From positions 38,879 to 102,878 of the forward strand of contig CAWBXN010000003.1 of the NCBI GenBank assembly GCA_963792805.1: DNA of 64,000 nucleotides. The letters run 5' to 3'. Under the pieces are notes generated by a model. That model was not told the origin of the DNA. It did no database searches and worked only from the letters and a program-made list of their open reading frames with translations. The translations under genes and the position numbers were made by a program. This DNA is from an uncultured Actinomycetota bacterium (lineage in GTDB: Bacteria; Actinomycetota; Actinomycetes; Jiangellales; Jiangellaceae). This document shows, piece after piece, positions 16,627 through 64,000 of this stretch (positions are counted from its first letter, which is position 1; each line of letters begins with the position of its first letter).

Positions 16627-17626
16627 GCTCGTCGACGGCGTCGTCGATCACGCCCGGCTCGGCCGGGTCTGCCGCCGGTTCGAGCGCCTCGGTCTGCGGG
16701 TCCAGGCGCGCCGGGTAGAAGAACCCCTCTTCCACCGCCAGCATCTCCGGTCGATCCCACGCTGCAGCCCGCCAGCAGTCGTCGATCCCCAGCACGGCGC
16801 GACGCTGGCCCGCTCGCTCCTCCACCAGTGCCAGGGCCTCTCTCTCACGGCCCCGCAGGTACTCCTCCAGGAGGGGGGCGCAGCGCCGGGACAGCTCGCT
16901 CAGCGGCGCCTCCGGGTGGTTGACGTGGATGGTCCCGGCAAGGCGCCGCAGGTTGTTCGACAGGCCGAGGAACGTCGACAACGTCGGGTCGGCAGCAGCC
17001 ACCACGAGTGGCGCGGGACGCAGCCGAGCGTAGGTCCCGAGCGACGTGTCGACCGTCCGCAGGAACGTCTCCGCGCTGCTGCCCCCGTCCGAGGCCAACG
17101 GGAAACCCGCGGTCCGCACCGGCGTCAGGTGGCCGAGGGCCGCATCGAAGAGCTTCGCCTCATCGGCGGCGAGGACGAGCAGCAGATGACGAGGGGTCCG
17201 GTGCAGGGCACGGACGAGGTCGCGGGTCGCGAAGGTCGGGTCCACCACGCACCGGGCCCGAACCAGGATCGGCAGATCCACCACGTCGCTGACATCACGG
17301 TTCACGAAGACCGCCAGCCCGTCGCGAACCGGGCGGTCGGCGAGCTCGGCGAGGGCCGCGTCGAGCCGGGCCAGCGTCTGCTCGAGATGCTCGGTCGGTT
17401 CCTGGCGCAGCCTGGTCGCGGCTTCGGCAGCGAGGGTCTCGAGCATCGCCCGGTCATCCTCGGTGAGCCGGTCCCCTGGTGTGGTGGGAAGCAGCAGGCT
17501 GACGCAGGGGTAGCCGCGGACGGACTGCAGCTGCATGACCGCTGCGGGGTCGAGCGGATGGACACGAAGCTGGGGCACGGGTTCCTCCTCGAGGACAAGT
17601 GGACGGGCCTCGAGGTCTCCTCCCAT
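16529..17626 (-). CDS. bacterial archaeo-eukaryotic release-factor-like (baeRF family) protein, tentative
   Basis: ORF 16529..17626. N-terminal pattern GYPCVSLLLPTTPGDRLTEDDRAMLETLAAEAATRL and the mid-region LAVFVNRD resemble baeRF3-type proteins as I recall them. An alternative GTG start at 17578 follows GAGGAGG. Confidence 0.45.
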   Translation of the reverse strand: MGGDLEARPLVLEEEPVPQLRVHPLDPAAVMQLQSVRGYPCVSLLLPTTPGDRLTEDDRAMLETLAAEAATRLRQEPTEHLEQTLARLDAALAELADRPVRDGLAVFVNRDVSDVVDLPILVRARCVVDPTFATRDLVRALHRTPRHLLLVLAADEAKLFDAALGHLTPVRTAGFPLASDGGSSAETFLRTVDTSLGTYARLRPAPLVVAAADPTLSTFLGLSNNLRRLAGTIHVNHPEAPLSELSRRCAPLLEEYLRGREREALALVEERAGQRRAVLGIDDCWRAAAWDRPEMLAVEEGFFYPARLDPQTEALEPAADPAEPGVIDDAVDELIEQVLSRGGWVALVSDGTIPNAARVAMTVYQ

Positions 17627-17805
17627 GCCATCCGGTGGCGGGCTCGGACCGAGTGCCGGGGCACTGTGCTGACGACCCGAGCGAGGGCCGCCACGGCGGC
17701 CCCGGAGTACTCCCCTCGTCCGAGGACGCTAGCGGAGCGGCCCGGCGCCGGCACCTTGGCGATGGCTCCGGTGGGCGCCCCCGACGGCCGGAGCACGATG
17801 GCATC

Positions 17806-18648
17806 GTGCTCATCCTGCTGCCGCCGTCGCAGGCCAAGGCTTCGCCCAGCCGCGGCCGTCCGCTGGACCTCGACCGGCTGCGCCTGCCCGCGCTGCACGA
17901 GCACCGCACCGCCGTCCTCGCCGCCCTCGTGCAGCTCTCACTGGGACCCGCGGCCGAGGCACGCCGCGTCCTAGGCCCTGGCCCGACGCAGCACGACGCC
18001 CTGCTTGGCAACGCCGGGCTGCCCTCGGCGCCGACCCGACCGGCTCGCGAGGTCGACCGCGGAGTGCTCGACGAGGCGTTGGGGCTGACTCGCCTCCCAG
18101 CTACCGCTGCTCGCCGGGCCTCCGCCTGGCTCCTGGTCTGCTCGGGCCTGTGGGGGGCGGTCCGTCCGGCTGACCGCATCCCGGCCCACCGGCTCCCCGG
18201 CTCGACGGTCCTGCCGGGCATCGGCCCGCTCGCGCGGTCCTGGCAGGGTCCACCGGCCCGGGCGTTCAGCACCTTGCCGCACTCCACGCGGTCGGGGCTG
18301 GTCCTCGACCTCCGCTCCAGCGCCTATGCCCCGATGCGGCGGCCGAGCCAGTCGATGGCTGAGCGCACGGTGACGGTGCGGGTCGTGCACGACCTGTCCT
18401 CCGGGGCAGGCAGCGCCGTGAGCCACCAGAACAAGGCGACCAAGGGCCGGCTGGCTCGGGGCCTCCTGCTCGATGGCGGAACCCCCCGGACAGGAGGCGA
18501 GCTGCGGGAACACCTGACCAGGTTGGGATGGACCGTCGCCGAGGGGCCACGACCCAACACCCTGGACGTGGCGCAGTGCCTGGCAGCGCAGTCAGGCAGG
18601 CTCGGTCCCTTCACGCGTTCCGTCGGAGGGTTCCGCCATCATTCGAAC
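17806..18648 (+). CDS. yaaA: YaaA (DUF328/UPF0246) peroxide-stress protein homologous segment, with no stop codon of its own
   Basis: GTG at 17806 gives VLILLPPSQAKASPSRG (YaaA opening LLPPSEGK). Similarity runs to about 18570 (NTLDV). The frame then continues without a stop into the HNH gene (single ORF 17599..20064). Confidence 0.7.
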
Positions 18649-20064
18649 ATGAGTTCGATCAGCCGTCCGGACGCCGTCCTCCACGGCGACCCGGGGGTCA
18701 GGTGCCCGGCGTCGGACATCGTCGACGGGCTCATTGGGGAGCTGCACACCACGCTGGGCCGCTTGTTGGCTGCACCGGCGGCCGCGACGGAATCGCGAGG
18801 CGATGTCGTGGCGAGACTGCTCCGAGCGCAGGCTCGCCTCGAGGCGGTGACGTTGACGGCGCTGGCGGCATTCGATGCGGTCGACGGTGCGACGGCGTCC
18901 GGGGACGGGTCGACCGCGGTCTGGCTGTCGCGTGCCACGACCACGTCCCCGGCGCAGGCCGCCGGCATGGTCCGCTCAGCCCGGGTACTCCACGAGCATC
19001 TGCCCGCTACCCGAGCCGCCCTCGCTGCTGGCGACATCTCGGGTCGGCATGCCAACGCCGTCGTCGCCGTCGTGGGGCGGGTCGGCGCACGTCACGCTCA
19101 AGCAGCCGAGCCTCTGCTCCTGGATCTGGCGCGGCGGGCGGAGCCCGGCGCGGTGCGGGCAGCCGGCCGCTACCTGCATGAGGTCTTGGATCCTGCCGGA
19201 GCGGAGCGGGCCTGCTCGCGTGAGTACGAGCGCCGCGGGGTCTCCTTCTCCATCTCTGGCTCCGGCTCTGGAGGCCGCGGGTACCTGGAGGGCGTGCTGG
19301 ACCCGGAGTCGGCTGAGCAGCTGCAGGCAGCATTGATGCCGCTCATGGCTCCGACGCCCGGTGACACCCGCACGGCCACGCAGCGTCGGGCCGATGCCCT
19401 GGTCGACCTGGCCAGGCGTGCCCTGGATGTGGGAGACCTGCCAGCCGTGACGGGAACCGGACAACGTCCGCACGTCTCGGTGGTCGTCGAGGCCTCGACC
19501 TTGGCCGGCGGGGGCGGGGTTGGTGTGCTGCCGTGGACGTCGGCTGCGATCGGATGGGGGTCGCTGCGAAGGCTGTCCTGCGACGCGCGGCTGACCCCGG
19601 TCCTCACCCGGCTCCACGGCTCCGGGACCGGCGGCGCGGGCGCGTGGCTGCCGATCGCCGTGGGTCGTTCCAGTCGAACGGTGACGCCGTCGCAGGCAGC
19701 GGCCCTCCGCGTGCGTGACGGTGGCTGCGTGATCCCCGGATGCAGCCGGACCTATGCCTTCACCCACGCCCACCACGTGCAGCACTGGGCGGACGGTGGG
19801 CCGACAGACCTGAACAACCTCGTGCTGCTGTGTGGCCACCATCACCGAGCCCTGCATCAGGGCCACTGGGTGGTGAGGCCGGTCGCCGACGGCGAGGGCT
19901 TCGAGGTCACCGATCGCCACGGACGCACGCAGCCGGCCCAGCACGCCGGTAATCGCGCTCCTCCGGCCGGGTTGGCGGCATCGCCGGATCCTGCGAGACC
20001 AGATCGCGGTCCGGGGAGCCCCGATCCTGGTGGGGCCCCCGCGACTGGCTTCCGCACGAGCTGA
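18649..20064 (+). CDS. DUF222-domain HNH endonuclease (REP13E12-type element protein)
   Basis: ATG at 18649 in the same frame as yaaA. DUF222-like N-terminal region. HNH motif CSRTYAFTHAHHVQHWADGGPTDLNNLVLLCGHHHRALH. Confidence 0.85.
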   Translation: MSSISRPDAVLHGDPGVRCPASDIVDGLIGELHTTLGRLLAAPAAATESRGDVVARLLRAQARLEAVTLTALAAFDAVDGATASGDGSTAVWLSRATTTSPAQAAGMVRSARVLHEHLPATRAALAAGDISGRHANAVVAVVGRVGARHAQAAEPLLLDLARRAEPGAVRAAGRYLHEVLDPAGAERACSREYERRGVSFSISGSGSGGRGYLEGVLDPESAEQLQAALMPLMAPTPGDTRTATQRRADALVDLARRALDVGDLPAVTGTGQRPHVSVVVEASTLAGGGGVGVLPWTSAAIGWGSLRRLSCDARLTPVLTRLHGSGTGGAGAWLPIAVGRSSRTVTPSQAAALRVRDGGCVIPGCSRTYAFTHAHHVQHWADGGPTDLNNLVLLCGHHHRALHQGHWVVRPVADGEGFEVTDRHGRTQPAQHAGNRAPPAGLAASPDPARPDRGPGSPDPGGAPATGFRTS

Positions 20065-20302
20065 GCGCCACGGCGAGAGCCGTCGTCGGGCGGGCCGTCC
20101 AGTGGCGCTCGCGCGGTCCCGCGCAGTCCGTCCCGCCACACCCGCCGGACCCGCCGGACCGGCCGCACCCGAACGAACGGTTCGGTCTGCAGCCGGTGAG
20201 CGCCGGTACCGTGCCAGCGGTCCACCATCACTGGATACCCCTACTGCCTGGGAGACACGATTCGGCGGCTGCCCCCTCCCGTCAGGCCCGTCCGAGGTGC
20301 CC

Positions 20303-20992
20303 TCAGGAGTCGCGGTAGCGTCGCGCGGCGATGAGCGCCCGCTCCAGGTCGTCCACCCCAGCCGGACGAGCGCCGGCGGACCAGTTCTCCGGATCCGCGG
20401 CGTATGGGCTGCCGTAGGCAGCTGTGTCGCGCTGGAACCGCCAGCCTTCGGCGAGCGGACCCACGTCCAGGACGTCGTAGCCGATCGAGTCGAGCAGGGC
20501 CCCTACGGTTGCCTTGGCGGCGGCATGGTCACCGGCGATCGGCAGAGCGCTGCGGTCCTCAGCACCGGCAGCCCGGGGCAGCGCCGCCAGGTGCTGGAAG
20601 AAGATGTTGTTGAAGGCCTTCACCACGGAAGAGTCCGGGAGCCGTGCCTGCAGCAGCTCCGACGTGGTGGTGGACTCGTCCTCGAGCGCGTCGATGGTGC
20701 CGTCGCGGGCCGGGTAGTAGTTCATGGTGTCGATGATCACCGCGCCAGTCAGTTCCTCGAACGGCAGGTCGGCCACACGACCCAGCGGGATGGTCACCAC
20801 GACGACGTCCCCGGCCGACGCCGCCTTGGCCGGTGTTGCCGCGCGGGCACGGGCGCCGAGCTCGGCGACCAAACCGACGAGCGTGTCGGGACCGCGGCTG
20901 TTGCTCAGGACCACCTCGTGCCCGGCGGTCACCGCCAGCCGTGCGACCGTTGCCCCGATGTTGCCGCTGCCGATGAGCCCCACCGTCGTCAT
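20303..20992 (-). CDS. NADP oxidoreductase, F420-dependent reductase-like (NpdG/F420_oxidored fold)
   Basis: ATG at 20992 within ORF 20303..21241. Rossmann motif MTTVGLIGSGNIGATVARLAV, then VVVVTIP and KAFNN. Confidence 0.75.
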   Translation of the reverse strand: MTTVGLIGSGNIGATVARLAVTAGHEVVLSNSRGPDTLVGLVAELGARARAATPAKAASAGDVVVVTIPLGRVADLPFEELTGAVIIDTMNYYPARDGTIDALEDESTTTSELLQARLPDSSVVKAFNNIFFQHLAALPRAAGAEDRSALPIAGDHAAAKATVGALLDSIGYDVLDVGPLAEGWRFQRDTAAYGSPYAADPENWSAGARPAGVDDLERALIAARRYRDS

Positions 20993-21512
20993 GACAGCGG
21001 CAACCCCTGGCCCCTGCCGGGCATTCCGTGCCGGGCTGGCGGATACGCGTTGGCCTGCAAGCATGGGCCACCAGGCACTCTCACTGCACCCGACGCCCTC
21101 GCAAGACCAGCGACGAGGTCGAGCGGGGGGTCCTCGTGCCAGCGGGCGGCCAGCAGCCAGTCCTGCCACGTGCCCGCGAAGACTGCGCACCTGATCACCG
21201 ACTGCACCCTCTCGAGCACCCCAGCATGGCCACGACGCCACGTGTGCTTACCCACGCCTGGGGCCGATCGTCCTCGAGGAAGGAGCCCGCGATCGAACCC
21301 GCCAACGCGTCCTGAACGTCTATCGCCGGCCCAGGCGCGGACGAAGGGGGCACATTGGCGAGCGGCAACCTGGTACCAGCTCAGCCCGGTGGATGTCCCG
21401 CAAGTGGCTGCCGGCCACGTCGGTGCATGGTGCCGGGTGGCGCGCTGTTGGACCATCATGAGTCCGTGCGGACCCGTGTGCTGGGCCCCATGGTTGCCGC
21501 GGCCTCCAACGT

Positions 21513-21650
21513 CTACTCGGGGCGGCCCCAGGGGTTGACGATGCTGACACCGAGGCGTTCGAAGTGTCTGATGTTGCGGGTGGCGATGGTCATTCCGGTG
21601 CTCTGGGCGATGGCTGCGATGAGCGCGTCATCCAGTGGCGCCTGCCACCA
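21513..21650 (-). pseudogene. 3' remnant of a PIN-domain (VapC-like) toxin gene
   Basis: Minus-strand translation ...PLDDALIAAIAQSTGMTIATRNIRHFERLGVSIVNPWGRPE* (stop at 21513-21515) matches the C-terminal third of VapC toxins. The frame closes about 50 codons upstream, with no start and no N-terminal PIN region. Confidence 0.5.
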
Positions 21651-21820
21651 CCTACAGCGTCCCCTTGCTCGGTGTCGGGGAGTTCGACGCCAGTGGGCAG
21701 ATCACCCGCTGGGTCAGGAGCTCTGACAGGTGGTCGATGACCAAGGGCATGCCAACACCGGTGCCCTCGCCCCGATCATTGCCGGTGCAGGGGCCTGTTC
21801 CGGACGCCCCACTCGCGGCG

Positions 21821-22210
21821 CTAGGACGCGGTGGCTGAGTGAGCAACGATCCACGCAGCGATCTGTGGCACGTCGAGTTGGCCGGACGCCGCACTGAGCA
21901 TCAGGTCCTCGGCCTCGTCGACGGTGTAGGTCAGGTCCCGTCCGTTGAGCAGGCAGAAGACGCGTGCTGCCGACCATGCCAGTCGCTTGTTCCCATCCAC
22001 GAGCGCGCGATTGCGGACCGATGAGTGCAGCAGGGCCGCGGCCTTGTCCTCGAAGGTCGGGTAGGCGTCGTCACCGAAGACGGTGATCTGGGGGCGGGCC
22101 GTGGCTGCCTCCAGAAGGCCGGCGTCCCTGACCACCACGTGCTCGATCACTCCGGCGGCGATCTCGAGGAGGTCCTCGACCGAGAGGTAGTCGATCTCCG
22201 CAGCGTTCAC
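21821..22210 (-). CDS. death-on-curing (Doc/Fic-fold) family toxin
   Basis: ORF 21821..22210. Doc motif region HSSVRNRALVDGNKRLAW (GNKR core present, but the position of the conserved His is Arg). 129 aa. Overlaps the upstream antitoxin stop by 4 nt. Confidence 0.85.
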   Translation of the reverse strand: MNAAEIDYLSVEDLLEIAAGVIEHVVVRDAGLLEAATARPQITVFGDDAYPTFEDKAAALLHSSVRNRALVDGNKRLAWSAARVFCLLNGRDLTYTVDEAEDLMLSAASGQLDVPQIAAWIVAHSATAS

Positions 22211-22404
22211 TCGCTCAGGCGCTCAAGCAGCTCGCGATCCTCGGTGCGGACACGCTGGATGGCACCCAGCAGTCGCTGCGGGCGGTCCGAGACGTACTGG
22301 GCGATGGCGGTGCGGGCGACCTCCTGCATCGAGCGCCCTTCCTGCTCGGCCTTCGCGCGCAGGGCGTCGCTCTCGGCGTCGGTGAGTCGGAGATTCATCG
22401 CCAT
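22207..22404 (-). CDS. ribbon-helix-helix antitoxin (Phd/CopG-like) paired with Doc
   Basis: ATG at 22404 inside ORF 22207..22764: MAMNLRLTDAESDALRAKAEQEGRSMQEVARTAIAQYV. 65 aa. Translationally coupled to doc. Confidence 0.8.
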   Translation of the reverse strand: MAMNLRLTDAESDALRAKAEQEGRSMQEVARTAIAQYVSDRPQRLLGAIQRVRTEDRELLERLSE

Positions 22405-22531
22405 GGGACCAACGGTACTACCGCGGTACCGACCTGGCCGAGTCGCCAGGATGCCCATTGAGAGGTGCCCCACAGTGGGGGCCAGAAGGACGCTGGGAAC
22501 CGCGGGTCCGATCGCGGCTGAGTGGGGCAGG

Positions 22532-22795
22532 TTAGGCGGATCGTTCGTGGTCGAGTCGTTCCAGGATCCAGGCACGGACGAGCGTCGAGGCGGGCAGGTG
22601 CTTGGCGGCGGCAACCCTTTGCACCTCGGCCTCTTCGTCGGCGCTGAGTCGGACGGAGTACACCTTCTGGCGGTTCGGTCGGCGGCCGGTCGTGCCGGCC
22701 GGGTAGGCCGCGTCCTTGGTCTGTTCGGATTCGCGGCGGAGCTGCTCGGCACGTGCTGGGTCAATCGTCTTGGCCATCGTCGTCTCCTTGCTCAT
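22532..22795 (-). CDS. RHH antitoxin, BrnA-like
   Basis: ORF 22532..22795. RHH core KVYSVRLSADEEAEVQRVAAAKHLPASTLVRAWILERL. Lies downstream of the putative toxin and overlaps it. Confidence 0.6.
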   Translation of the reverse strand: MSKETTMAKTIDPARAEQLRRESEQTKDAAYPAGTTGRRPNRQKVYSVRLSADEEAEVQRVAAAKHLPASTLVRAWILERLDHERSA

Positions 22796-23084
22796 ACAGT
22801 CTGATGTCCGCTCCGGTCGCGGACCAGGCGTTGATGCCGTGCAAGTCGCCGTCGAGGTCGCGGTAGGCGATCACGACCAGCACCCGACCGGCGGATCGGG
22901 AGTGGCCGATGAACCGTGACGCTCCCATCCGAGACTTGGGGTCGGGTTCGAACGCGAGGAGGTCCATGTCGTCCATCACCTCCTGAGCCCATGTCGGTTC
23001 GATGCCGACGCCGTCGGGGTACCGGTCGCCGCGGGAGCGGATGTAGGCGATGGCGTCGTTGCTCCACTGCATCGATTCGCCCAC
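22761..23084 (-). CDS. BrnT-like (DUF497-like) toxin, tentative
   Basis: ORF 22761..23084. Layout W..DAIAYI...(acidic linker)...IGHSRSAGRVLVVIAYRD....INAWSATGADIRLY resembles BrnT. Toxin-first gene order, as in BrnTA modules. Confidence 0.45.
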   Translation of the reverse strand: MGESMQWSNDAIAYIRSRGDRYPDGVGIEPTWAQEVMDDMDLLAFEPDPKSRMGASRFIGHSRSAGRVLVVIAYRDLDGDLHGINAWSATGADIRLYEQGDDDGQDD

Positions 23085-23152
23085 ACTCGCAGCCTACTCC
23101 GCGTCGGACGATGTAGTACACGATCCTGGACATGCGTCCCGGCCGTTCTCGC

Positions 23153-24067
23153 TCACACGCCGGCGACGTAGGCGGTGAGGAAGTGGACGCCGTGCCGGTC
23201 CAGGTTCCCGCGGGCGCGGTCGTCGTGCTCGGTGGTACGGGGGTCGGCGTGTCGGGCCAGGATCTGCGCATCACGCTGGGGGACGCCCGCGTCCAAGGCG
23301 TTGGTGACCGCGGCATGGCGCAGCGAGTGAGGACTGATGTGCCGCGGGATACCCGCGGTCGTCGCGATCGGGGTGACCATGCGGTAGGCGTCACGGCGGG
23401 TGATCGGCTTCCCGGACACCGGTCGAAGCACCAGCGGCCCGGAGGTGCGCTGGCCCCGGCAGGCTTCCAGGACCCGCAGCACCGGCACGGTGAGGGGCAT
23501 GGTGGCCGGCTTGTTGCCCTTGCCGACCAGAAGGAGCACCCGGTGCCCGCGCAGGGTGTCGGCGTCGTGCTCGATGTGGACGGCGGCGGCCTCCGACGCG
23601 CGCAAGGCATTGATCCCGAGCAGGAAGGCCAGGGCGCCGTGGTGCACGCTCACCGTCTGGGCTACCTGCAGGAAGCGGATCAGCTCGAGTCGGTCCAGTC
23701 CCTGGGTGCGCGACTCGTCCCGCTGCACCCTCGGCAGCCGCGCCTACACAACCGGGTCGGCGGTGATCAGCCCGTCGACGTGGGCGAAGCGGAAGAACCC
23801 CCGCACCCCGTGCAACATCGTCACCACGGAGGAGTCCATCAGCCCCCGCTCTCCCAGGCCACGGATGTACAGCTCGACGTGGGCACGTTGGATCCCGACC
23901 AGCGGGTCCAGCCCATGGCGCTCGCACCAGGCGAACCACTCCCGCAGCTGGAAGGCGTACAAGGCGTGGGTCCGCCCGGAGTAGCGGGCCAAGAACGACT
24001 CCGCCGCCAACTGGGCGGTCGACATCCGCGACGGCTGGAACGGCAGCAAGGTCGTCGCACCGGACAT
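23153..24067 (-). pseudogene. tyrosine recombinase/phage integrase interrupted by one in-frame TAG
   Basis: ORFs 23744..24067 (SAM-like N-domain) and 23153..23728 (catalytic domain with ALRASE, HSLRHA, terminal Tyr in LTAYVAGV) are in the same frame. They are separated only by TAG at 23744-23746 (...ITADPVV*ARLPRVQRDESRTQGL). Confidence 0.8.
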
Positions 24068-24366
24068 GGGTCACCTCACGTGGCGACCTCACACAAGGCC
24101 CACACCGAGCCCGCCGCCGACACGGCCAGGCACCCGGACCCACCGACGCTAGCCCCGGTCCGCATCCCCGTGAACTGCGTCCGCAGGCGGCGGTAGGACT
24201 CACAGGAGAACGCCCGACTCGCCGCATTCCGTGCGAGTGTTGATCGGAAGCCCGTCGTCGGCGATGGTGCCCCTGATCCGGTAGTCACCGGCGAGTACTC
24301 GCTGTGCTGGGCGTTCCTGGGGTGAGGGCGACGCCGACGTCGTGGATATCGGAGAACCCGGGTCGC

Positions 24367-25188
24367 TCAGCTTTGAGTCTGCGCGAGTCCTGTCTGCGGA
24401 TCGGGGGCAAGGTCAGGCCGCTGCAGGTGCCACCCGCTGAGGGCGGCCGCCGCGGCCATCACTACCTGCACCGCCGGCCAGGCTGGTGACACACCGACGA
24501 GCACAACCACAGCCGGGACGAGCGCTGAGGCGACCGCAACGATCCACGACCGTCGACGCTCGACGCCTGCCACCGATGCCAGCACCAGCCCGGTCAGCAG
24601 ACCCGCGAACATCGTCGGGACTACCCAACCGAGCGCGTCATCGACGGGGCCCAGCAGGTCGACCCCGACGATGCCGGACACCAGCATCGACGCCGCCACC
24701 GACACCGGGATCCCCAGCAGAAGCACCAGGTCGAGCCGCCTTGTCGCAGGATTTGGTGGCTCCAGCGAGCCTGCGCCCCACACACCAAGCACCGTCGCCG
24801 CCGCGACGATCAGCACCTGCAGCCACACGGCGGTGACCATCACCGCCCCAGCCGCTGCTACACCGACCAGCAGCATCACCGGCCAGGCCCGCACTCCGGC
24901 TACTCGAGCGACTGCCAGGCCCGCAACGACGCCGACCGGCGCCACCCACATCCATCCGAGGACACTGTCGGGGTACGTCAGCACCGTTCCCGGCTCGGCG
25001 ACGAACGTCCAGCCTGCTGCGCCCTCCTCCCACCCCCCTTGTGCCACATAGGGCTCCCGCCATATCGCGTACGCCATTCCCGCCGTGTACGCGACTGCCG
25101 CCGCGACGACCGGACTGATCGCCACAGCGAACCAGCATCGCCGCCGTGAGGTCCGTGACACCTCACAGCCACGGGTCGCAGGCGTCAT
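24367..25188 (-). CDS. hypothetical polytopic membrane protein (island cargo)
   Basis: ORF 24367..25188. About 7 hydrophobic helices rich in Ala/Val/Gly. No family recognised. Confidence 0.45.
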   Translation of the reverse strand: MTPATRGCEVSRTSRRRCWFAVAISPVVAAAVAYTAGMAYAIWREPYVAQGGWEEGAAGWTFVAEPGTVLTYPDSVLGWMWVAPVGVVAGLAVARVAGVRAWPVMLLVGVAAAGAVMVTAVWLQVLIVAAATVLGVWGAGSLEPPNPATRRLDLVLLLGIPVSVAASMLVSGIVGVDLLGPVDDALGWVVPTMFAGLLTGLVLASVAGVERRRSWIVAVASALVPAVVVLVGVSPAWPAVQVVMAAAAALSGWHLQRPDLAPDPQTGLAQTQS

Positions 25189-25295
25189 CCCGCTACCCCC
25201 GATTCCTCCACATCCTCACCGGTACGCCGACGAGTCGAGGCGGACCAGGGGCGAACGACTCGCTAGTCGGGCGCAGCCAACCGGTCGAGTTCGTC

Positions 25296-26725
25296 ACGGC
25301 CGAGACTGTCCGGAACAACGGTGTAACTGGCCCAACTCGCCGACCGGTGGTCGGCAGGAAGGTCGGTTGTGATGACCGAGACACTGGCGGGCATGAGCTC
25401 GCTGAAGAAGGCCATGACGAAGACGGCCACGCCGGCGGATGCTGAGCGTGCCGCGGTGCGGGAGCTGGTCAGGTCGGCCCGCGCGCGTGGTGAGGATCTG
25501 ACCGGGCCTGACGGCCTGTTGAAGGGGATCACCAAACAGGTCTTGGAGGCCGCGCTCGAGGAGGAGATGACCGAGCACGTCGGGTATGACAAGCATGCCG
25601 TTCAGGGACACAACAGCGGCAACTCCCGCAACGGCACGAGGACCAAGACGGTGCTGACCGACAACGCCGGCGAGGTGCAGGTGCAGGTGCCGCGGGACCG
25701 TGACGGCACCTTCGCACCGGTGATCGTCAGGAAACGGCAGCGTCGGTTGTCCGACGTCGACGCGGTGGTGCTGTCGCTGTACGCCCGTGGGCTCACCACG
25801 GGGGAGATCTCGGCGCACTTCGCCGAGGTGTACGGGGCGTCGGTGTGCAAAGACACGGTCTCGCGGATCACCGACCGGGTGATCGAGGACATGCAGGTCT
25901 GGTCCTCGCGGCCGCTGCAGGGCGTGTACGCGGTGATCTTCATCGACGCAATCATGGTGAAGGTCCGCGACGGCCAGGTCGGCAACCAGCCGTTCTACGC
26001 CGCCATCGGGGTCGATCTGCGTGGTCACCGCGACGTGCTCGGCCTGTGGTCCGGAAATGGTGGCGGAGAGTCGGCAAAGTTCTGGATGAACGTGCTCACC
26101 GACATCAAGAACCGCGGCGTGCACGACGTGTTCTTCATCGTGTGCGACGGGCTGAAGGGCCTGCCCGACAGCGTGAGCGCCGTCTTCCCGGCAGCGATCG
26201 TGCAGGCATGCATCATCCACCTGATCCGCGGGACGTTCCGCTACGCCTCCAAGCGCTACTGGGACCAGCTCGCCAAGGACCTGCGACCCATCTACACCGC
26301 CCCGAACGCTGAGGCCGCGTGGGCGGCGTTCGAGGAGCTGGAGGAGAAATGGGGCAAGGCCTACCCGGCCATCCCCAAGCTGTGGCGCAACGCCTGGAAC
26401 GAGTTCATTCCCTTCCTCGACTACGACGTGGAGATCAGACGCGTGCTGTGCTCGACGAACGCGATCGAGTCGCTCAACGCCCGCTACCGGCGGGCCGTGA
26501 ACACCAAAGGACACTTCCCCACCGAGCAGGCCGCACTCAAGACCCTGTACCTGGTCACCCGATCCCTGGACCCAAAGGGCCTCGGACAGGCACGATGGGT
26601 TACCCGGTGGAAGCCAGCACTCAACGCCTTCGCCATCACCTTCGCCGACCGCATGCCGGCCGCGGAGACCCTGTAATGATCAACACCGGTTACACCGTTC
26701 GTCGGACAGACCCGATTTCGGCCGT
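25296..26725 (+). mobile_element. IS256-family insertion sequence
   Basis: Single transposase gene flanked by imperfect inverted repeats: GACTGTCCGGAACAACGGTGTAACTGG (25304..25330) and the reverse complement of 26686..26711 (GTCTGTCCGACGAACGGTGTAACCGG). An outer ACGGCCGA/TCGGCCGT pair lies at 25296 and 26725. Exact ends and target duplication are not resolved. Confidence 0.8.
25369..26676 (+). CDS. IS256-family (Mutator-type) transposase
   Basis: ORF 25369..26676, 435 aa. Typical IS256 transposase sequence (LKGITKQVLEAALEEEMTEHVGYDKH, RNGTRTKTV, FIDAIMVKVRDG, CDGLKGLPD, NAIESLNARYRR). Confidence 0.95.
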   Translation: MMTETLAGMSSLKKAMTKTATPADAERAAVRELVRSARARGEDLTGPDGLLKGITKQVLEAALEEEMTEHVGYDKHAVQGHNSGNSRNGTRTKTVLTDNAGEVQVQVPRDRDGTFAPVIVRKRQRRLSDVDAVVLSLYARGLTTGEISAHFAEVYGASVCKDTVSRITDRVIEDMQVWSSRPLQGVYAVIFIDAIMVKVRDGQVGNQPFYAAIGVDLRGHRDVLGLWSGNGGGESAKFWMNVLTDIKNRGVHDVFFIVCDGLKGLPDSVSAVFPAAIVQACIIHLIRGTFRYASKRYWDQLAKDLRPIYTAPNAEAAWAAFEELEEKWGKAYPAIPKLWRNAWNEFIPFLDYDVEIRRVLCSTNAIESLNARYRRAVNTKGHFPTEQAALKTLYLVTRSLDPKGLGQARWVTRWKPALNAFAITFADRMPAAETL

Positions 26726-26944
26726 CGTTGACAGAAGGAACGGTCGTGATCGGCTTTGCGATATCCAGGCAGAGCCACTCGAGTGGGCGTTGGTCCGTTC
26801 GGGCACGCCCCAGTACTCGATTGGGCACAAATGACTCCGGCCGACCACATCCCGCGGCCTTGAGGCTAGGCTTCGGCACACGAATGCGCGGCTATCGCGA
26901 GCGTCAGGCGGCGACGCAATCGATGCTGACGATCAGAGGTTTGA

Positions 26945-27946
26945 GTGACGTCGGGCACGAATAGAGTGGAGATGGTGAGATTGCGCACATTTGCGCATGA
27001 CCCTGCCGACACCCCGGAGGCTGCTCGCCCTCGGGTGCTTCCGACTCACCCGGAGCGCGTCGACAACAATGCTCTGGTGGCCGCGTCCATCGTGTCGATG
27101 CAGCGCCTGGCCGGCAACCGGGCGGTGGCGAGTCTGCTGAGAACCGAGTCGACCGACGAGCGAGGGCGGCCGGATGCGGACGCCCAGCCGTCACCAGCGC
27201 CGCGAGATGTTGGTGTGGAAACCGGTCGCGCGGCATCGGCTGCCCGCCGCGCCGTTTCAACTGACGGGCGCGGCGTGGACGACGAGATCGCGGACAGTCG
27301 TCAGCTTGTTCAGCGCCAGGGCGGTGGCGCGCCTGCCGGACCAACGACTCCGATTGCGGTACGCAACGGCCCAGGCCACGTGCCGATCGACACCGCGGCC
27401 GCTGCCGGGATGGCGATCGACATCACCTTGACCTCCTCGACCGGCGTGGATGCGGACATGGCCGCCATCCTCGACAGCGAGCAGGTCAGTTCGTCGGTCA
27501 ATCACACGGGTTCGTATTCCAAGGTCCCGTCCCGTCGCAGCAACAACAGCGGGTATATGCCCGGCCACCCCATCCCCGCCGACCGCCACAGTGAGTCCAA
27601 AGCCGATATCATCGACACTGCGGACAATCACGGCGGGAACGGGAGCTTCGAACGGCTCCAGCTCGACACCTGGAAACCGAACGCAGCGGGCGCAGAGGCC
27701 GCAATTCCGAATTCCGGATATTTCATCAAGCGGAGCATCATCACGAACGGCACGGGAATCCGATACCGGACCGAGAAGGGTCCTCGCGCGGTCTCTGCGA
27801 ACGGGTTCAGCAGCACCGCGGGGCCTTCGCCGGTGCAGGCGGAGGAGGTCGAGGTCAGGCCACCCGCAGCCGCCCCGGCACCGGCTGCGCCGAAAGCCGC
27901 CAGCCCCGGCAAGTGGAAGAGGTTCCTGAAGTGGCTCGGACTCTGA
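26945..27946 (+). CDS. hypothetical protein with LQRLAGNRAVASLL-type N-terminal leader, unknown central domain and Ala/Pro-rich basic tail
   Basis: ORF 26945..27946 in a visibly lower-GC stretch. Leader MQRLAGNRAVASLL at about residues 52-65. Start uncertain (GTG 26945, ATG 26972 or TTG 26981). No catalytic motif recognised. Tail PPAAAPAPAAPKAASPGKWKRFLKWLGL. Confidence 0.6.
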   Translation: MTSGTNRVEMVRLRTFAHDPADTPEAARPRVLPTHPERVDNNALVAASIVSMQRLAGNRAVASLLRTESTDERGRPDADAQPSPAPRDVGVETGRAASAARRAVSTDGRGVDDEIADSRQLVQRQGGGAPAGPTTPIAVRNGPGHVPIDTAAAAGMAIDITLTSSTGVDADMAAILDSEQVSSSVNHTGSYSKVPSRRSNNSGYMPGHPIPADRHSESKADIIDTADNHGGNGSFERLQLDTWKPNAAGAEAAIPNSGYFIKRSIITNGTGIRYRTEKGPRAVSANGFSSTAGPSPVQAEEVEVRPPAAAPAPAAPKAASPGKWKRFLKWLGL

Positions 27947-27956
27947 GGAGGGCACG

Positions 27957-28415
27957 ATGCAGGACGGAGCCTCATTTCGCAAGGTCGCCCCGTTGCTGTC
28001 ACTACGACCAGAGGACGAGCAGCTGCTCGCGACGTACGACTCGTTCGACGACAGGGGAGTACCCGCGAACGGGTATCGCATCACGCTGTTGACCGCGACG
28101 CCCTCGATCGCGGTCAACGAGGTGGTCGGGATCGTGCATGTGTGCGAGTCGGTCTCGGACGATGCACCTTTGTATGTGATGGGCCCGAAGCCGGTCTGGG
28201 GTGAGTACGTCGACGGCGTGCTGGCCACCGATCCGTCGCCGACGCCGAGCAATCCGTTCGAGCTGGCCTCCTACGACGGACGCGTGCTGCCCGGACCGGG
28301 AATTGATGGCAACTACGAGGTCACCCAGTACCAATTCAGTGAGCCAGGTGTGCACACAGTTCAGTGGCGGCTGGAGCCCACCGTCTCGAACATGCTGCGG
28401 TTCACGGTATCTTGA
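27957..28415 (+). CDS. hypothetical 152-aa protein translationally coupled to 26945..27946
   Basis: ORF 27957..28415. The ATG lies 10 nt after the upstream stop, and the SD GAGGAGG overlaps that stop. Same low-GC composition. No signal peptide, TM segment or known motif. Confidence 0.55.
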   Translation: MQDGASFRKVAPLLSLRPEDEQLLATYDSFDDRGVPANGYRITLLTATPSIAVNEVVGIVHVCESVSDDAPLYVMGPKPVWGEYVDGVLATDPSPTPSNPFELASYDGRVLPGPGIDGNYEVTQYQFSEPGVHTVQWRLEPTVSNMLRFTVS

Positions 28416-28601
28416 CAGGCCGGGAGTGACAATTCTGTCCTGCCGGCCACGGGCGCCTTTTGGCGTGTTTCTTCATCGCCAATTGGTATACCGACCAAGC
28501 GGTACAAGCCGAACCAGGTCGCATCGTTGAATCGCATGCCAACATTCAGTGGGACCTTCGCCTATCCGCTCAAGGCAACAGTGGGTCACCTGGCTTCCAT
28601 G

Positions 28602-28634
28602 GCAGTGCAACCGCACTGCTTGCAGTTGCACTGC
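28602..28634. repeat. compact inverted/direct heptamer cluster GCAGTGC-N4-GCACTGC-N8-GCACTGC
   Basis: GCAGTGCAAC (28602..28611) pairs with GTTGCACTGC (28625..28634). The inner GCACTGC (28613..28619) can pair alternatively with the first heptamer. Lies in a 470-nt non-coding, lower-GC gap before the dnaB 3' end. Confidence 0.4.
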
Positions 28635-28887
28635 ATCCTCGTGACCCGCACGGTCAAGGCCTCCTAGTCCGCCAACTCGGGACGTCAAGGAATGTCGCGG
28701 ACGCTCCCGGGAGGCGTAGCCCCTTCTGGGCGAAAGGACTCACATCGAGGAGCCCGGTCCGGACCAGCACGCACGTCTCGTCATAGGTACATGGCGCGAC
28801 TGACCAGGGTCGAGAAGCCCGCCTAATGAGAGCTGCTCGCAGGAGCGATTCCAGCCATGCTCCGTGCATCTCGACAACAGCAGCTGC

Positions 28888-30372
28888 TCAGTCTCTCGCC
28901 ATATTCACGAATCGGCTGTAGTGCCCCTGGAAGGCGACCGTCACGGTGCTCGTCGGGCCGTTGCGGTGCTTGGCGACGATGAAGTCCGCCTCGCCGGCCC
29001 GGGGAGACTCCCGCTCGTAGGCGTCCTCACGGTGGAGAAGGATGACCATGTCGGCGTCCTGCTCCAGCGAGCCCGACTCGCGGAGGTCCGAGAGCATCGG
29101 CTTCTTGTCGGTGCGTTGCTCCGGGCCACGGTTGAGCTGCGAGAGCGCCACCACCGGCACCTGGAGCTCCTTGGCCAACAGCTTCAGCGACCGCGAGAAC
29201 TCGCTCACCTCGACCTGGCGGGACTCCACCCGCTTACCCGAGGTCATGAGCTGCAGGTAGTCGATGATGACAAGGCGGAGCTCGTTGCGCTGCTTGAGCC
29301 GGCGGCACTTCGCCCGAATCTCCATCATGGTCATGTTCGGTGAGTCGTCGACGAAGAACGGCGCGCTCTCGACTCTGCCGACCGTGCGCGCGATGCGATC
29401 CCAGTCAGCCTCGCTCATCGTGCCGCTACGCATGTGGTGCAGCGGCACCTTCGACTCCGCCGAGAGCATCCGCATGGTGATCTCCGAGCGGCCCATCTCC
29501 AAGGAGAACATCACCGAGGTCTGACCGGCCGTGATGGCGGCGGCCCGAGCGATGTCGAGTGCGAGCGTGGACTTCCCGATGGCCGGGCGGGCGGCGATGA
29601 TCACGAGCTGGCCGGGGTGCAGGCCGTTGGTCAGGGAGTCCAGGTCGTCGAAGCCGGTGGGCACGCCCACCATCTCGCCACCGCGCGAGCCGATGAGCTC
29701 GATCTCGTTGAGCGTGCCCTCAATGATCTCCGCGATCGGCAAGTAGTCCTCGGCCGTGCGACGCTCGGTGACGGCGTACACCTCGGCCTGGGCCCGGTCG
29801 ACCACGGCATCGACCTCCCCCTCCCCGGAGTAGCCCATCTGGGTGATCCGGGTACCGGCCTCGACGAGGCGTCGCAGCACCGCCTGGTCGTGGACGATCT
29901 CGGCGTAGTAGGCAGCGTTGGCGGCGGTCGGTACGCCGGACACCAGGGTGTGGACGTAGGGAGCTCCGCCGATTCGCGTCAGCTCACCGAGCTTGGTGAG
30001 CTCGGCGCACAGGGTCACCGGGTCAGCCGGCTCGCCGCGGCCGTAGAGCTCGAGGACGGTGTCGTAGATCGTCTCGTGCGCCGGTCGGTAGAAGTCCCCC
30101 CCTCGCAAGACCTCGACCACGTCGGCAATGGCGTCCTTCGACAGCAGCATCGCCCCAAGCACGGACTGCTCAGCGGCGACGTCCTGCGGCGGCATCCGGT
30201 CAAAGGTGGGCCCACCCGTAGGCCCACCAGTCGGACCGGTCGCACCCGCCGGTGACTGCCGCTGCGACGAGAGCTCGGCAAGGCTGATGGCGTCCACCCC
30301 CTCTCGTCGGTTCGTCCACGAACGCGGGCCGCGCTGCACGCTCCGTAGCCGACTCTGCTCGCGTGCCGTCAT
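28888..30372 (-). CDS. dnaB: replicative DNA helicase DnaB
   Basis: ORF 28888..30372. PPQDVAAEQSVLGAMLLSKDAI N-domain and Walker A IIAARPAIGKSTLALD. 494 aa, contiguous, no intein. Confidence 0.95.
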   Translation of the reverse strand: MTAREQSRLRSVQRGPRSWTNRREGVDAISLAELSSQRQSPAGATGPTGGPTGGPTFDRMPPQDVAAEQSVLGAMLLSKDAIADVVEVLRGGDFYRPAHETIYDTVLELYGRGEPADPVTLCAELTKLGELTRIGGAPYVHTLVSGVPTAANAAYYAEIVHDQAVLRRLVEAGTRITQMGYSGEGEVDAVVDRAQAEVYAVTERRTAEDYLPIAEIIEGTLNEIELIGSRGGEMVGVPTGFDDLDSLTNGLHPGQLVIIAARPAIGKSTLALDIARAAAITAGQTSVMFSLEMGRSEITMRMLSAESKVPLHHMRSGTMSEADWDRIARTVGRVESAPFFVDDSPNMTMMEIRAKCRRLKQRNELRLVIIDYLQLMTSGKRVESRQVEVSEFSRSLKLLAKELQVPVVALSQLNRGPEQRTDKKPMLSDLRESGSLEQDADMVILLHREDAYERESPRAGEADFIVAKHRNGPTSTVTVAFQGHYSRFVNMARD

Positions 30373-30991
30373 CGGTCATCGTGCCCAGCGGGTCCGACAC
30401 AACCGTGGACGAGAAGCGAGGGTGAGGCTATGGCGACGCTCGCCTGCAGGCGAGGACGTCGTCCACAGCAGGTGTGGACGACATGGGGAAAACGCGGTGT
30501 CGGCCCAGGTCAGCCATCCACAGGGACTGGGGACGACGCGCCGACGGCCGCCGACGACGACCGCCGTGTGGCCGACAGACCAGCGAGGACGTGGCCGCTC
30601 GGTGTGGACAACTGCCCGGTCAAGGCCATCTCAGGATGCGAGAAGCCCGAGTCGTCGCCTCCGCAGGGGCGCCTCGGGCCTCTCGCCTCCGGCCGTGCCC
30701 TTGGCGAGGACGATCTGCTCGCGGCGGCCCTCGACATGGCCCCGCCGGCCCGCGGGCAGACCCGGTGCTCCACCGGTTGTTCCCCGACGCCTACGGGGAC
30801 GACCTCGACGCCGCGGCCGACTTCAGCCGCTACACCGAGCGCGGGCTGCGCGAGCCAAAGCGCCGCACCGCCGAGGTGGTCCTGGCCACGCTCACCGCTG
30901 CCGAAGAAGGGTCTCGCCGAGGGTCGCGCGAGGTCACCCTGAGCGAAGACCTTCGACTGGTTGGGCTGGCTGCAGCAGACGCTCGTCGAGC

Positions 30992-31837
30992 TCAGGCGAC
31001 GGGCTGGTCCTGACGCTGACCTGCCGGTGCCGGGTCGACAGCCGAACCCATCTCCGAGGCTTCGAACGCCGCGTCGTAGAAGAAGCTCTTCTTACGCGCG
31101 ATCTTGTAGATGAGCAGGCCGAACACGGCCTTGGCGACGACGTCCGCGATGGCGTAGCCAACGTTGCGCAGGACGAACGCGTCCGCCCCGTCGAACCCGA
31201 CCATCGGGAACAGGTAGGCGATCGGGTAGACGCCCCACGTGGCCACGAGCACCCAGCGCAGGTTCTTGATGTTGCGCACGACCGGGGCGGGCTGGCGCTC
31301 GATCGACCGGGTGAGCTCGCCGAAGAGGACCCAGAGGATGTAGAGGAAGGGAATGGTGGACAGGGCCCCCCAGATGCCGCGGGTGAGGTTGTCGGTGGCG
31401 ATCTCGCCCGGGTAGCCCAGCGCGATCATCAGCGCCGAGGCGGGGACGAGCCGGATCAAGAGTCGGTTGGCGTCCTGGCGGGCGAGTGCGAGGATGGCGA
31501 CGGTCTCGACGAGCAGCAGCGGGACCGTCAGGAACCAGTCGACGTAGCGGTAGAGCTCGTTGAATGCCACCCCCTCCGCCAGGCGATAGCTGCCCTGCCC
31601 ACCGACGGCGTCGGTGACGTACGCCTCCTGGAAGTTGGCGAAGATCCGCAGGTAGTGGTAGGCGGCGATGCCGGTCACCATGGCCGAGATCGCGACTGCC
31701 TGGCGGTAGCGGGGAAGGACCCTGGGCAGGGAGACGAGCAGGAAGAGCGTCGCGAACAGCATGCTCGCGACGACGAACGAGAACGAGTTGTAGACGAGGT
31801 CGAACTGACCCTTGGTCAGTTCTTCTACTCCCACCAT
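30992..31837 (-). CDS. type-1 microbial rhodopsin, proteorhodopsin/xanthorhodopsin/actinorhodopsin-like (DTE motif, predicted outward proton pump)
   Basis: ORF 30992..31837. ATG preceded by AACAGGAGGCATC. Seven hydrophobic helices. Helix B AAYHYLRIF. Helix C RYVDWFLTVPLLLVE gives D/T/E at the PR D97/T101/E108 positions and Leu at the PR-105 position. Helix G YAIADVVAKAVFG carries the Schiff-base Lys four residues after the Asp. Confidence 0.9.
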   Translation of the reverse strand: MVGVEELTKGQFDLVYNSFSFVVASMLFATLFLLVSLPRVLPRYRQAVAISAMVTGIAAYHYLRIFANFQEAYVTDAVGGQGSYRLAEGVAFNELYRYVDWFLTVPLLLVETVAILALARQDANRLLIRLVPASALMIALGYPGEIATDNLTRGIWGALSTIPFLYILWVLFGELTRSIERQPAPVVRNIKNLRWVLVATWGVYPIAYLFPMVGFDGADAFVLRNVGYAIADVVAKAVFGLLIYKIARKKSFFYDAAFEASEMGSAVDPAPAGQRQDQPVA

Positions 31838-32070
31838 GATGCCTCCTGTTGAACGTGAGGGTGCGCCCGAAGCTGTACGTGACTATCCGCCGCACAGCCC
31901 TGAACCGCCCCTTGAGTCGGTTCTGAATCGGTTTTCGAGGAACCCTCGGCGCCCGCGGATGCCCCGGGCGTCGGTGCTGCCGGATGCGGCGCCTACGCTG
32001 GGCCATCCGTGCTCCGGCTCTCCGGCGACCTGGTCGACGCGATGCTGGCGCACGCTTGGGAGAACGACCT

Positions 32071-32517
32071 CTAGGCGGGCTGGACGTCCAGGGTGATCGT
32101 CGCCGAGAGCTCGGGGTGCAGGCGCACCGAGACGGTGTGCACGCCGACGGCCTTGATCGGCGCCGAGACCTCGACCTTGCGCTTGTCGATCGCCGGTCCA
32201 CCGGCGGACGCAAGGGCGGCGGTGATGTCCGCGGGGGTGACCGCACCGAACAGCCGGCCCCCGTCGCCGGCCCGAGCGGTGAGCACCACGGGCGTGCCCT
32301 CGATGCGTGCGGCCACCTCCTCGGCGGTCTCGAGGTCTCGGATCTCGCGCACCTCACGCCTCTTGCGCAACGAGTCGATCTGACGCTCAGCGCCCTTGGT
32401 CCAGCGCATGCCGAGGCCGCGCGGGACGAGGTAGTTGCGCGCGTAGCCGTCCTTGACCTCGACCACGTCGCCGGCCGAGCCGACGCCACTGACCTCCTGC
32501 GTCAGGATGATCTTCAC
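32071..32517 (-). CDS. rplI: 50S ribosomal protein L9
   Basis: ORF 32071..32517. MKIILTQEVSGVGSAGDVVEVKDGYARNYLVPRG. Confidence 0.97.
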   Translation of the reverse strand: MKIILTQEVSGVGSAGDVVEVKDGYARNYLVPRGLGMRWTKGAERQIDSLRKRREVREIRDLETAEEVAARIEGTPVVLTARAGDGGRLFGAVTPADITAALASAGGPAIDKRKVEVSAPIKAVGVHTVSVRLHPELSATITLDVQPA

Positions 32518-63060: not shown

Positions 63061-63092
63061 GGCGGGGATGTCGATGACCGTCCCGACGTGGG

Positions 63093-63665: not shown

Positions 63666-63686
63666 CCCAACACTGGTCGTCGGCCT

Positions 63687-64000
63687 CTAGGTCCCGGTCT
63701 TCTTGCGCTGGCTGCGCGTGGTCCGCTTCGGCTGCTGGCGCGCCGGGGCCGGCGGCGGGGTCATCTCGGTGGTCGCCACCCCCGTCGACGAGCCCCCGCC
63801 GGGCTCGCCTGGGTCCGGCAGCCCCTTGCGCTTGGCCTTCTCCTGCTGACGCCGCAGGTGGTCCCGCTCGGCCTGCGACCCGGGGGCCGGCATTCGCCGG
63901 ATGACGTAGAACTGCTGACCCATGGTCCAGACGTTCGACACGAGCCAGTAGAGGACCACGCCCAGCGGGAAGATGTAGCCGCTGAAGAGGAACATCAGTG
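63687..64000 (-). CDS. yidC: membrane protein insertase YidC (3' part only; gene continues beyond the window)
   Basis: ORF 63687..63995, frame open to the window edge. FPLGVVLYWLVSNVWTMGQQFYVIRRMP is the conserved YidC C-terminal helix, followed by a basic tail. Confidence 0.9.
   Translation of the reverse strand, partial: LMFLFSGYIFPLGVVLYWLVSNVWTMGQQFYVIRRMPAPGSQAERDHLRRQQEKAKRKGLPDPGEPGGGSSTGVATTEMTPPPAPARQQPKRTTRSQRKKTGT

Follow-up and report, generated by a model that had tools for sequence, protein, structure and literature searches.

A probable relocation of an actinorhodopsin-type gene, with relics of its former neighbours, into the rplI-dnaB gap of an uncultured Jiangellaceae bacterium

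In a 64,000-nucleotide (nt) stretch of DNA from an uncultured Actinomycetota bacterium of the family Jiangellaceae (GenBank assembly GCA_963792805.1, contig CAWBXN010000003.1, forward-strand positions 38,879 to 102,878; hereafter the window), an intact gene for a rhodopsin of the actinorhodopsin type, predicted to be a light-driven proton pump, is found between rplI, which encodes ribosomal protein L9, and dnaB. Very probably, this gene is part of a block of ~1.4 kb that was relocated into the rplI-dnaB gap from the canonical site of its relatives, together with relics of its neighbours there. The gene is flanked by pieces of mec and of a DUF2017 gene, its product is nested phylogenetically among proteins encoded at the canonical site, its key residues are those of the actinorhodopsins and its sequence is under purifying selection. 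The window offers a clean and datable case of rhodopsin gene movement, in which a small block travelled with its own regulatory region and with fossils of both former neighbours.

The canonical locus, its relics and the landing site

The features of the insert and its flanks are as follows, in window positions.

28888-30297, minus strand: dnaB, the downstream flank (likely GTG start at 30297 from homologues; the longest open reading frame, ORF, extends to 30372)
30459-30611, no strand assigned: four DnaA-box-like sites (TCGTCCACA, TGTGGACGA, CCATCCACA, TGTGGACAA), found as motif matches in the native upstream region of dnaB
30634-30690, minus strand: strong GC-rich hairpin that borders the insert on its left (-44.4 kcal/mol, z = -3.5, equalled by none of 200 shuffled sequences)
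30704-30950, plus strand: DUF2017 pseudogene, central fragment, about codons 45/61-127 (partial Pfam match, profile positions 53-131 of 179)
30952-31005, plus strand: DUF2017 pseudogene, C-terminal fragment, codons 173-190
30992-31837, minus strand: rhodopsin gene of the xanthorhodopsin/actinorhodopsin type, 281 amino acids (Pfam, structure alignments, dN/dS)
31838-32008, minus strand: native rhodopsin-mec intergenic region carried along, 171 nt
31842-31846, minus strand: Shine-Dalgarno sequence GGAGG, separated from the ATG by 4 nt and evident in the sequence itself
31912-31930, minus strand: conserved cis-element CGATTCAGAACCGACTCAA, two (A/G)TTCA repeats spaced 11 bp, shared upstream of related rhodopsin genes
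32009-32059, plus strand: 5' relic of mec (Prok-JAB, deubiquitinase-like), GTG and 16 further codons, VLRLSGDLVDAMLAHAW
32071-32517, minus strand: rplI, the upstream flank (Pfam)

The loci and contigs retrieved for comparison, which include those encoding the closest rhodopsin homologues, are designated by L-numbers; a metagenome scan with the rhodopsin yielded no more than 26 loci. In seven distinct relatives, whose rhodopsins are 68-88% identical to that of the window (L087, 88%; L003, 79%; L005, 74%; L092 and L117, 72%; L089, 70%; L118, a Jiangellales metagenome-assembled genome or MAG, 68%), the gene occupies the canonical position, where it is divergent from the genes for Prok-JAB (mec), ThiS (cysO) and PALP (cysM) proteins and convergent with those for DUF2017 and ClpS proteins, i.e., mec-cysO-cysM <- -> rhodopsin -> <- DUF2017 (aosR-like) <- clpS. 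DUF2017 is the AosR family, and the DUF2017 proteins at the canonical loci score 91.6 bits, which is below the cut-off of 260 bits of the NCBIfam AosR equivalog model. Acting with SigH, AosR is an activator of mec-cysO-cysM in Mycobacterium tuberculosis (PMC8280819). The order rhodopsin -> <- DUF2017 <- ClpS is also retained in four contigs of low GC content (40-41%; L093-L096, e.g., L094 4001-5694), which are probably acI-type freshwater contigs and whose rhodopsins are 62-63% identical to that of the window. The linkage of the rhodopsin gene with those for DUF2017 and ClpS looks ancient within the Actinobacteria, and the site between mec and DUF2017-clpS emerges as the deep ancestral home of actinobacterial rhodopsin genes.

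Both neighbours are still recognizable in the window. The mec relic, identified by tblastn, blastn and alignment, is divergent from the rhodopsin gene, as at the canonical locus, with its homology to mec ending at most 12 nt from the stop codon of rplI, and the intergenic region between the relic and the rhodopsin gene has a counterpart of 170 nt in L003. The C-terminal DUF2017 fragment is convergent with, and overlaps, the 3' end of the rhodopsin gene, while the central fragment matches L087 at 69% by tblastn (E = 1e-25). The first ~43-60 codons of DUF2017 are missing or unrecognizable, codons 128-172 have been lost in a deletion of ~135 nt and the frame has changed, which makes the remnant a pseudogene. 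Colinearity of the window with the canonical locus of L087 is seen in the four segments aligned by blastn.

32007-32059: mec start and upstream bases, 85% identity, E = 5e-12
31063-31851: rhodopsin gene, 86% identity
30704-30896: middle of DUF2017, 77% identity, E = 4e-38
30947-30990: end of DUF2017, 91% nucleotide identity, E = 1e-12

Among the matches listed, the DUF2017 nearest to the pseudogene belongs to the L087 lineage, as is the case for the rhodopsin. The mec relic still forms an open frame of 21 codons (32009-32074, plus strand), whose TAG and the stop codon of rplI overlap within a palindromic CTAG. If the promoter of the relic were active, antisense transcription into rplI would result, which by analogy with M. 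tuberculosis could be dependent on SigH and AosR.

In a neighbour-joining (NJ) tree of the proteins, the topology is (L001,(L003,(window,L087))), with bootstraps of 100, 82 and 92 and with L087 as the sister of the window protein; L087, L003 and the outgroups in the tree are all at the canonical site. Because the sister and outgroup copies are canonical and relics of that locus flank the window copy, the canonical site is ancestral and the rplI-dnaB position derived, in line with the insertion proposed by an earlier reading of the window's sequence (the original prediction).

The landing site can be compared with its unoccupied form. Pfam identifies rplI, rpsR and ssb on the upstream side of the rhodopsin gene and dnaB on its downstream side. 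With dnaB starting at the GTG at 30297, the native rplI-dnaB spacer without the insert would be ~390 nt, a length similar to the 354 nt of L001 and the 439 nt of L016. The 354-nt spacer of the nearest relatives with data, L001 and L002 (dnaB 79% identical), is empty, which agrees with a lineage-specific insertion in the window, and that of L016 is empty as well; a rhodopsin gene at this site is not common to all related genomes. On the operon strand, the hairpin bordering the insert on its left resembles the hairpin immediately 3' of rplI in L016 and is probably the native rplI terminator, displaced 1.4 kb downstream. Moreover, the order rplI-rhodopsin-dnaB with an identical protein recurs in two independent public (Logan) assemblies, and hence the arrangement is real and not a chimeric assembly. 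That the rplI-dnaB position is itself ancestral, or the product of a misassembly, would have nothing in its favour apart from the gene order of the window itself, and it is extremely improbable in the face of the mec and DUF2017 relics, the canonical position of the sister and outgroup copies, the empty spacers of the relatives and the identical gene order of the two assemblies.

The original prediction placed the insertion in an otherwise invariant rpsF-ssb-rpsR-rplI-dnaB block, a description that fails at the last junction. Among 80 actinobacterial loci retrieved in a DnaB-based scan, which was saturated by Streptomyces (at most 76% identical), 78 contain both rplI and dnaB, although ~70 of these are from Streptomyces and the samples are not independent. 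The rplI-dnaB junction is at least 1.7 kb in 75 of the 78 genomes and ~0.5 kb in the other three, while that of the window is 1.9 kb by the same measure. The gap ranges from 1.7 to 4.5 kb in Streptomyces, Kitasatospora, Nocardioides and Planotetraspora (L007-L086), and the junction is filled in the latter three genera too. Its occupant is often an antisense MatE efflux transporter gene, identified by Pfam in both loci tested, which are from Streptomyces iranensis and a Nocardioides MAG (L032 6035-7441 and L081 5964-7310, minus strand); a further example is L072 6315-7712, minus strand. The rplI-dnaB junction is thus a commonly occupied site, and only rpsF-ssb-rpsR-rplI is tight.

Based on these results, we propose that a block of ~1.4 kb (roughly 30691-32060/32070) would have been excised or copied from the canonical locus into the rplI-dnaB spacer, directly after the stop codon of rplI and ahead of its probable terminator hairpin. 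Its cargo would have been the rhodopsin gene, the native upstream region with the cis-element, the first 17 codons of mec and the 3' two-thirds of DUF2017, which has since degraded. The donor may have been this genome or a close relative, and duplication, cut-and-paste or transfer could each have been the route. Target-site duplications and terminal repeats are lacking, and no known plasmid or phage carries the block. In its mechanism, the insertion resembles illegitimate recombination; searches with the rhodopsin returned only weak homologues on Polymorphobacter megaplasmids among plasmids and no matches among phages.

Several results weigh against the overall explanation of a relocated gene for a proton pump. 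Neither a target-site duplication nor inverted or terminal repeats nor a recombinase flanks the block, around which only short chance repeats are found. Consensus scans, whose scope does not extend to GC-rich actinobacterial hairpin terminators, detected no sigma-70-like promoter and no U-tract terminator, and the identity of the displaced terminator rests on its position and a partial likeness to a single relative, L016. An intact DUF2017/mec locus of the same organism, looked for with DUF2017 queries, was not found: the 67-amino acid translation of the pseudogene gave one weak match, while the L087 DUF2017 gave at least 120, none of which, among the matches listed, is closer than 69% to the relic. 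Finally, a Pfam scan of the ~55 ORFs of the 64-kb window detected no members of the families for carotenoid (crt) or retinal (blh) synthesis.

A different origin of the block is also conceivable. It could be foreign, taken up from a different actinobacterium within the clade and integrated by illegitimate recombination, in which case the host would either have lacked this rhodopsin from the start or have retained an intact mec/aosR-like locus of its own. Rhodopsin genes are frequently transferred laterally, both ends of the block are arbitrary breaks within genes, as expected for a random fragment, and an island rich in mobile elements begins just beyond dnaB (17.6-28.9 kb). However, the GC content at third codon positions (GC3) of the rhodopsin ORF is 0.92, equal to that of host genes (window GC 70.9%), no plasmid or phage matches beyond weak rhodopsin homology, the dS of 0.56 to the nearest known donor-type copy points to no recent donor, and relocation within the genome fits the same data with one step fewer. 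We consider this foreign origin rather unlikely, and foreign acquisition is no more likely than a move of the block within the genome or its arrival from a close relative. The term acquired, which the original prediction used in the sense of foreign DNA, sits poorly with the host-like composition and with a donor locus that is the standard position in the same actinobacterial clade. Composition as a criterion of foreign origin was rejected, given the host-like GC3 and a GC profile that is unremarkable across the insert.

The mobile-element-rich stretch directly downstream of dnaB spans window positions 17599-28887, with GC content falling to 0.62 at 26.4-28.8 kb, and includes the following Pfam-annotated ORFs.

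17599-20064: 821-amino acid ORF with YaaA, DUF222 and HNH domains
21821-22210: Fic/DOC ORF
23153-23728 and 23744-24067: integrase split into two ORFs
25369-26676: IS256/Mutator transposase

Two further ORFs of this stretch, at 26945-27946 and 27957-28415, have no Pfam match. At the right end of the window, parB, parA, rsmG (gidB) and an R3H/jag gene are found at 60405-63995. From these genes, oriC and dnaA should lie just past the window, ~30 kb from the rhodopsin gene, in accord with the predicted location near oriC. The four DnaA-box-like sites upstream of dnaB are four of the six matches in the whole window; clusters of (T/C)(T/C)(G/A)TCCACA upstream of dnaB are also found in L001 (1690, 1754), L076 (7738, 7791) and L083 (7746, 7811). 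These motif matches hint that dnaB expression may be under the control of DnaA.

The rhodopsin and its predicted pump function

The rhodopsin ORF begins with ATG exactly 233 nt from the stop codon of rplI (32071) and matches the Bac_rhodopsin family (PF01036) over nearly the full profile (positions 7-222 of 224; E = 4.5e-42, 144.5 bits versus a cut-off of 24.6), while no NCBIfam model matches it. A Kyte-Doolittle scan of the protein detects six strong hydrophobic segments, with helix B being weaker. Like the full-length profile match, alignments to solved seven-helix structures place the protein among the type-1 rhodopsins. The closest structure is that of Gloeobacter rhodopsin (GR; 6nwd, E = 1e-78), with which the HMMER alignment is nearly gap-free over residues 5-267, followed by those of psXR (9wfa, 5e-77), 9hfk (2e-74), xanthorhodopsin (XR; 3ddl, 6e-62) and Kin4B8 (7ytb, 2e-57). 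5azd is also among the best solved relatives, and the matches of the XR/GR type, including TR, range from 1e-78 to 1e-54, as compared with ~1e-26 for proteorhodopsins and ~1e-17 for bacteriorhodopsin (BR). By these E-values, the protein is nearer to XR, GR and actinorhodopsin (ActR) than to proteorhodopsin or BR. Identity in the aligned regions is 56% to GR, 56% to 9hfk and 48% to XR.

More than 7,000 database proteins match the rhodopsin at E <= 1e-20, and the named matches are from Actinomycetota (Jiangellales, Friedmanniella, Cryobacterium and Pseudonocardia). In the NJ tree, the protein is grouped with actinobacterial copies, with GR and XR outside. With its closest homologue, L087, the ratio of nonsynonymous to synonymous substitution rates (dN/dS) is 0.17, at the dS given above; purifying selection has thus kept the gene intact, and a chance ORF can be dismissed. 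By all these comparisons, the protein is an ordinary actinobacterial retinal protein of the xanthorhodopsin-like (actinorhodopsin-type) clade, which is well known and has thousands of homologues. Sequences of the clade already number in the thousands and several of its structures are solved, and the protein as such adds nothing new to rhodopsin biology.

All the residues that define the outward proton pumps are found at the expected positions in the HMMER alignments to solved structures. RYVDWFLTVPLLLVE supplies D100, T104 and E111, which correspond to D121, T125 and E132 of GR and D96, T100 and E107 of XR, i.e., the Asp/Thr/Glu (DTE) set at BR positions 85, 89 and 96. L108 corresponds to GR L129 at the proteorhodopsin position-105 tuning site and H61 to GR H87, the helix-B His. 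On helix G, D232 and K236 correspond to D253 and K257 of GR, and K236 also to the Schiff-base Lys of XR, with the counter-ion Asp four residues before the Lys. The retinal-pocket residues R97, W101, W201, Y204 and P205 are present. A Pro in the middle of helix D separates actinorhodopsins from xantho-opsins according to Dwulit-Smith et al. (10.1101/367102), and the window protein has P132 in RLVPASA, where GR has Thr and XR Gly/Phe. On helix E, G157 in IWGALS corresponds to GR G178 and XR G156 and thus is a Gly in the place of BR Trp138.

The original prediction, which was made from the sequence without database searches, anticipated much of this. The 281-amino acid seven-helix ORF, its strong Shine-Dalgarno sequence and the 233-nt upstream gap are as it described. 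The DTE motif, the tuning Leu, the helix-B His and the Schiff-base Lys were correctly placed, with neither the Lys nor the DTE residues misaligned, and the Gly equated with that of the XR and GR antenna sites is aligned with it. The phylogenetic placement that it called for is in the actinobacterial xanthorhodopsin/actinorhodopsin group. Its statement that blh and crt genes are absent from the window also agrees with the Pfam scan.

Those characterized actinorhodopsins that combine the DTE motif with the helix-E Gly absorb green light and pump protons outward (10.1101/367102; PMC8113403), with absorption at 541 nm (10.1101/367102) or 550-570 nm (PMC8113403). By homology only, the window rhodopsin is predicted to be an outward proton pump as well, and its pigment would probably be of similar colour. 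All-trans retinal would be bound to K236 and green light would drive H+ outward, with D100 as proton acceptor, E111 as donor and the H61-D100 pair assisting, and the exported protons would add to the proton-motive force.

Whether retinal is available bears on the alternative that the opsin is not a light-driven pump in this organism, having instead a light-independent membrane role in the absence of a retinal source or serving as a sensor or regulator. The lack of blh and crt within the window would be compatible with such a role, blh is absent from some opsin-bearing Actinobacteria and some depend on external retinal (10.1101/367102), and one report proposes that opsins can act as light-independent scramblases (PMC12393363). 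Nevertheless, actR is normally distant from, and unlinked to, blh and crt even where an actinobacterial genome is self-sufficient (10.1101/367102), which makes their absence from this window alone uninformative on retinal supply. In addition, the DTE motif, the Schiff-base Lys, the counter-ions and the His are conserved in full, selection on the gene is purifying (dN/dS = 0.17), and proton pumping is established for actinorhodopsins that share these residues (10.1101/367102; PMC8113403). A non-pumping role is therefore improbable. As for an antenna, G157 would leave the helix-E window open and a carotenoid antenna is possible; this Gly is necessary and not sufficient, and ActR-13023 has it yet does not bind canthaxanthin in vitro (PMC8113403).

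The upstream element and expression of the gene

Every related locus contains a conserved 20-nt element, which precedes the rhodopsin start by 70-115 nt irrespective of where in the genome the gene lies. The loci include those at the canonical position, the L001 copy ahead of rpsF, the L088 and L116 copies at other sites and the window copy. The consensus is CGATyCA-N4-(C/T)(G/T)(G/A)yTCAr, and the positions in other loci are the following.

L087, 1316-1334
L003, 7904-7922
L005, 7920-7938
L089, 5920-5938
L092, 2191-2209
L001, 4008-4026
L088, 5875-5893
L116, 4921-4939

A degenerate pattern of the element has one match in the window, where 0.12 is expected, and four matches in 1.3 Mb of unrelated actinobacterial DNA. 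It also has one match upstream of the rhodopsin gene in each high-GC locus, these being the loci from which the pattern was derived; among loci fetched afterwards, L116 contains an exact match and L117 and L118 contain matches with one or two mismatches. The low-GC loci L093-L096 carry a related element, ATTCA-N6-GTTGTCCAG. No RNA family was matched in an Rfam scan of the whole window, and hence the element does not belong to any known type of riboswitch or leader; no description of it was found in the papers searched. Its geometry suggests, speculatively, the site of a winged-helix response regulator.

In its new position, the rhodopsin gene has the same orientation as the rpsF-ssb-rpsR-rplI transcription unit and is probably inside it, so that it could be transcribed from its own promoter and, presumably, by read-through. 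A second relocation, again near this operon, is found in the L001 lineage (L001 3108-4952; also L002 and L090), where the rhodopsin gene, whose product is 82% identical to that of the window, is ~700 nt upstream of and divergent from rpsF, within the same syntenic rpsF-dnaB/FemAB/PBP neighbourhood, and relics of mec and DUF2017 are absent. According to the protein tree, the relocation in the L001 lineage is independent of that in the window. A more ambitious explanation of the relocation in the window would be adaptive re-wiring instead of a neutral accident, in which the pump is co-transcribed with an oriC-proximal ribosomal operon, the L001 lineage represents a second independent move, and the element provides shared control of the response-regulator type. 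We hold this to be decidedly unlikely. If true, rhodopsin expression would be coupled to growth rate and gene dosage, and a dedicated control would be common to actinobacterial rhodopsins from low-GC freshwater types to lineages of 72% GC. The travelling element and the putative position of the gene inside a ribosomal-protein transcription unit are leads on the poorly understood regulation of actinorhodopsins.

Comparison with known systems

Among the characterized rhodopsins, the actinorhodopsins of freshwater Actinobacteria, acI ActR-L06 and ActR-13023 (10.1101/367102; PMC8113403), share with the window rhodopsin the DTE motif, the tuning Leu, the helix-B His, the Schiff-base Lys, the helix-E Gly and the helix-D Pro, and the presumed acI-type loci L093-L096 (62-63% identical) share the rhodopsin/DUF2017/clpS neighbourhood from which the window copy would have originated. 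Unlike the freshwater ActR, the window gene has left the canonical locus, its host is an uncultured actinobacterium with a GC content of 71%, for which DUF2017 and rhodopsin point to Jiangellales as the nearest named relatives, and the function of its subclade is predicted from sequence. GR (6nwd) has the corresponding D121/T125/E132, H87, G178 and D253/K257 and is an outward pump with a carotenoid-competent Gly, whereas its cyanobacterial origin, the missing helix-D Pro and a different genomic context set it apart. XR of Salinibacter ruber (3ddl) and Kin4B8 (7ytb) belong to the same clade as the window rhodopsin, and G156 of XR, the residue by which its antenna site is opened, is equivalent to G157; XR, however, is only 48% identical to the window protein, and the likeness of the putative antenna site is one of sequence. 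Finally, the mec-cysO-cysM, AosR (Rv1332, DUF2017) and clpS genes of M. tuberculosis (PMC8280819) represent the type of donor locus from which the relics in the window would derive, although the M. tuberculosis locus contains no rhodopsin gene and the window retains only broken pieces of mec and DUF2017.

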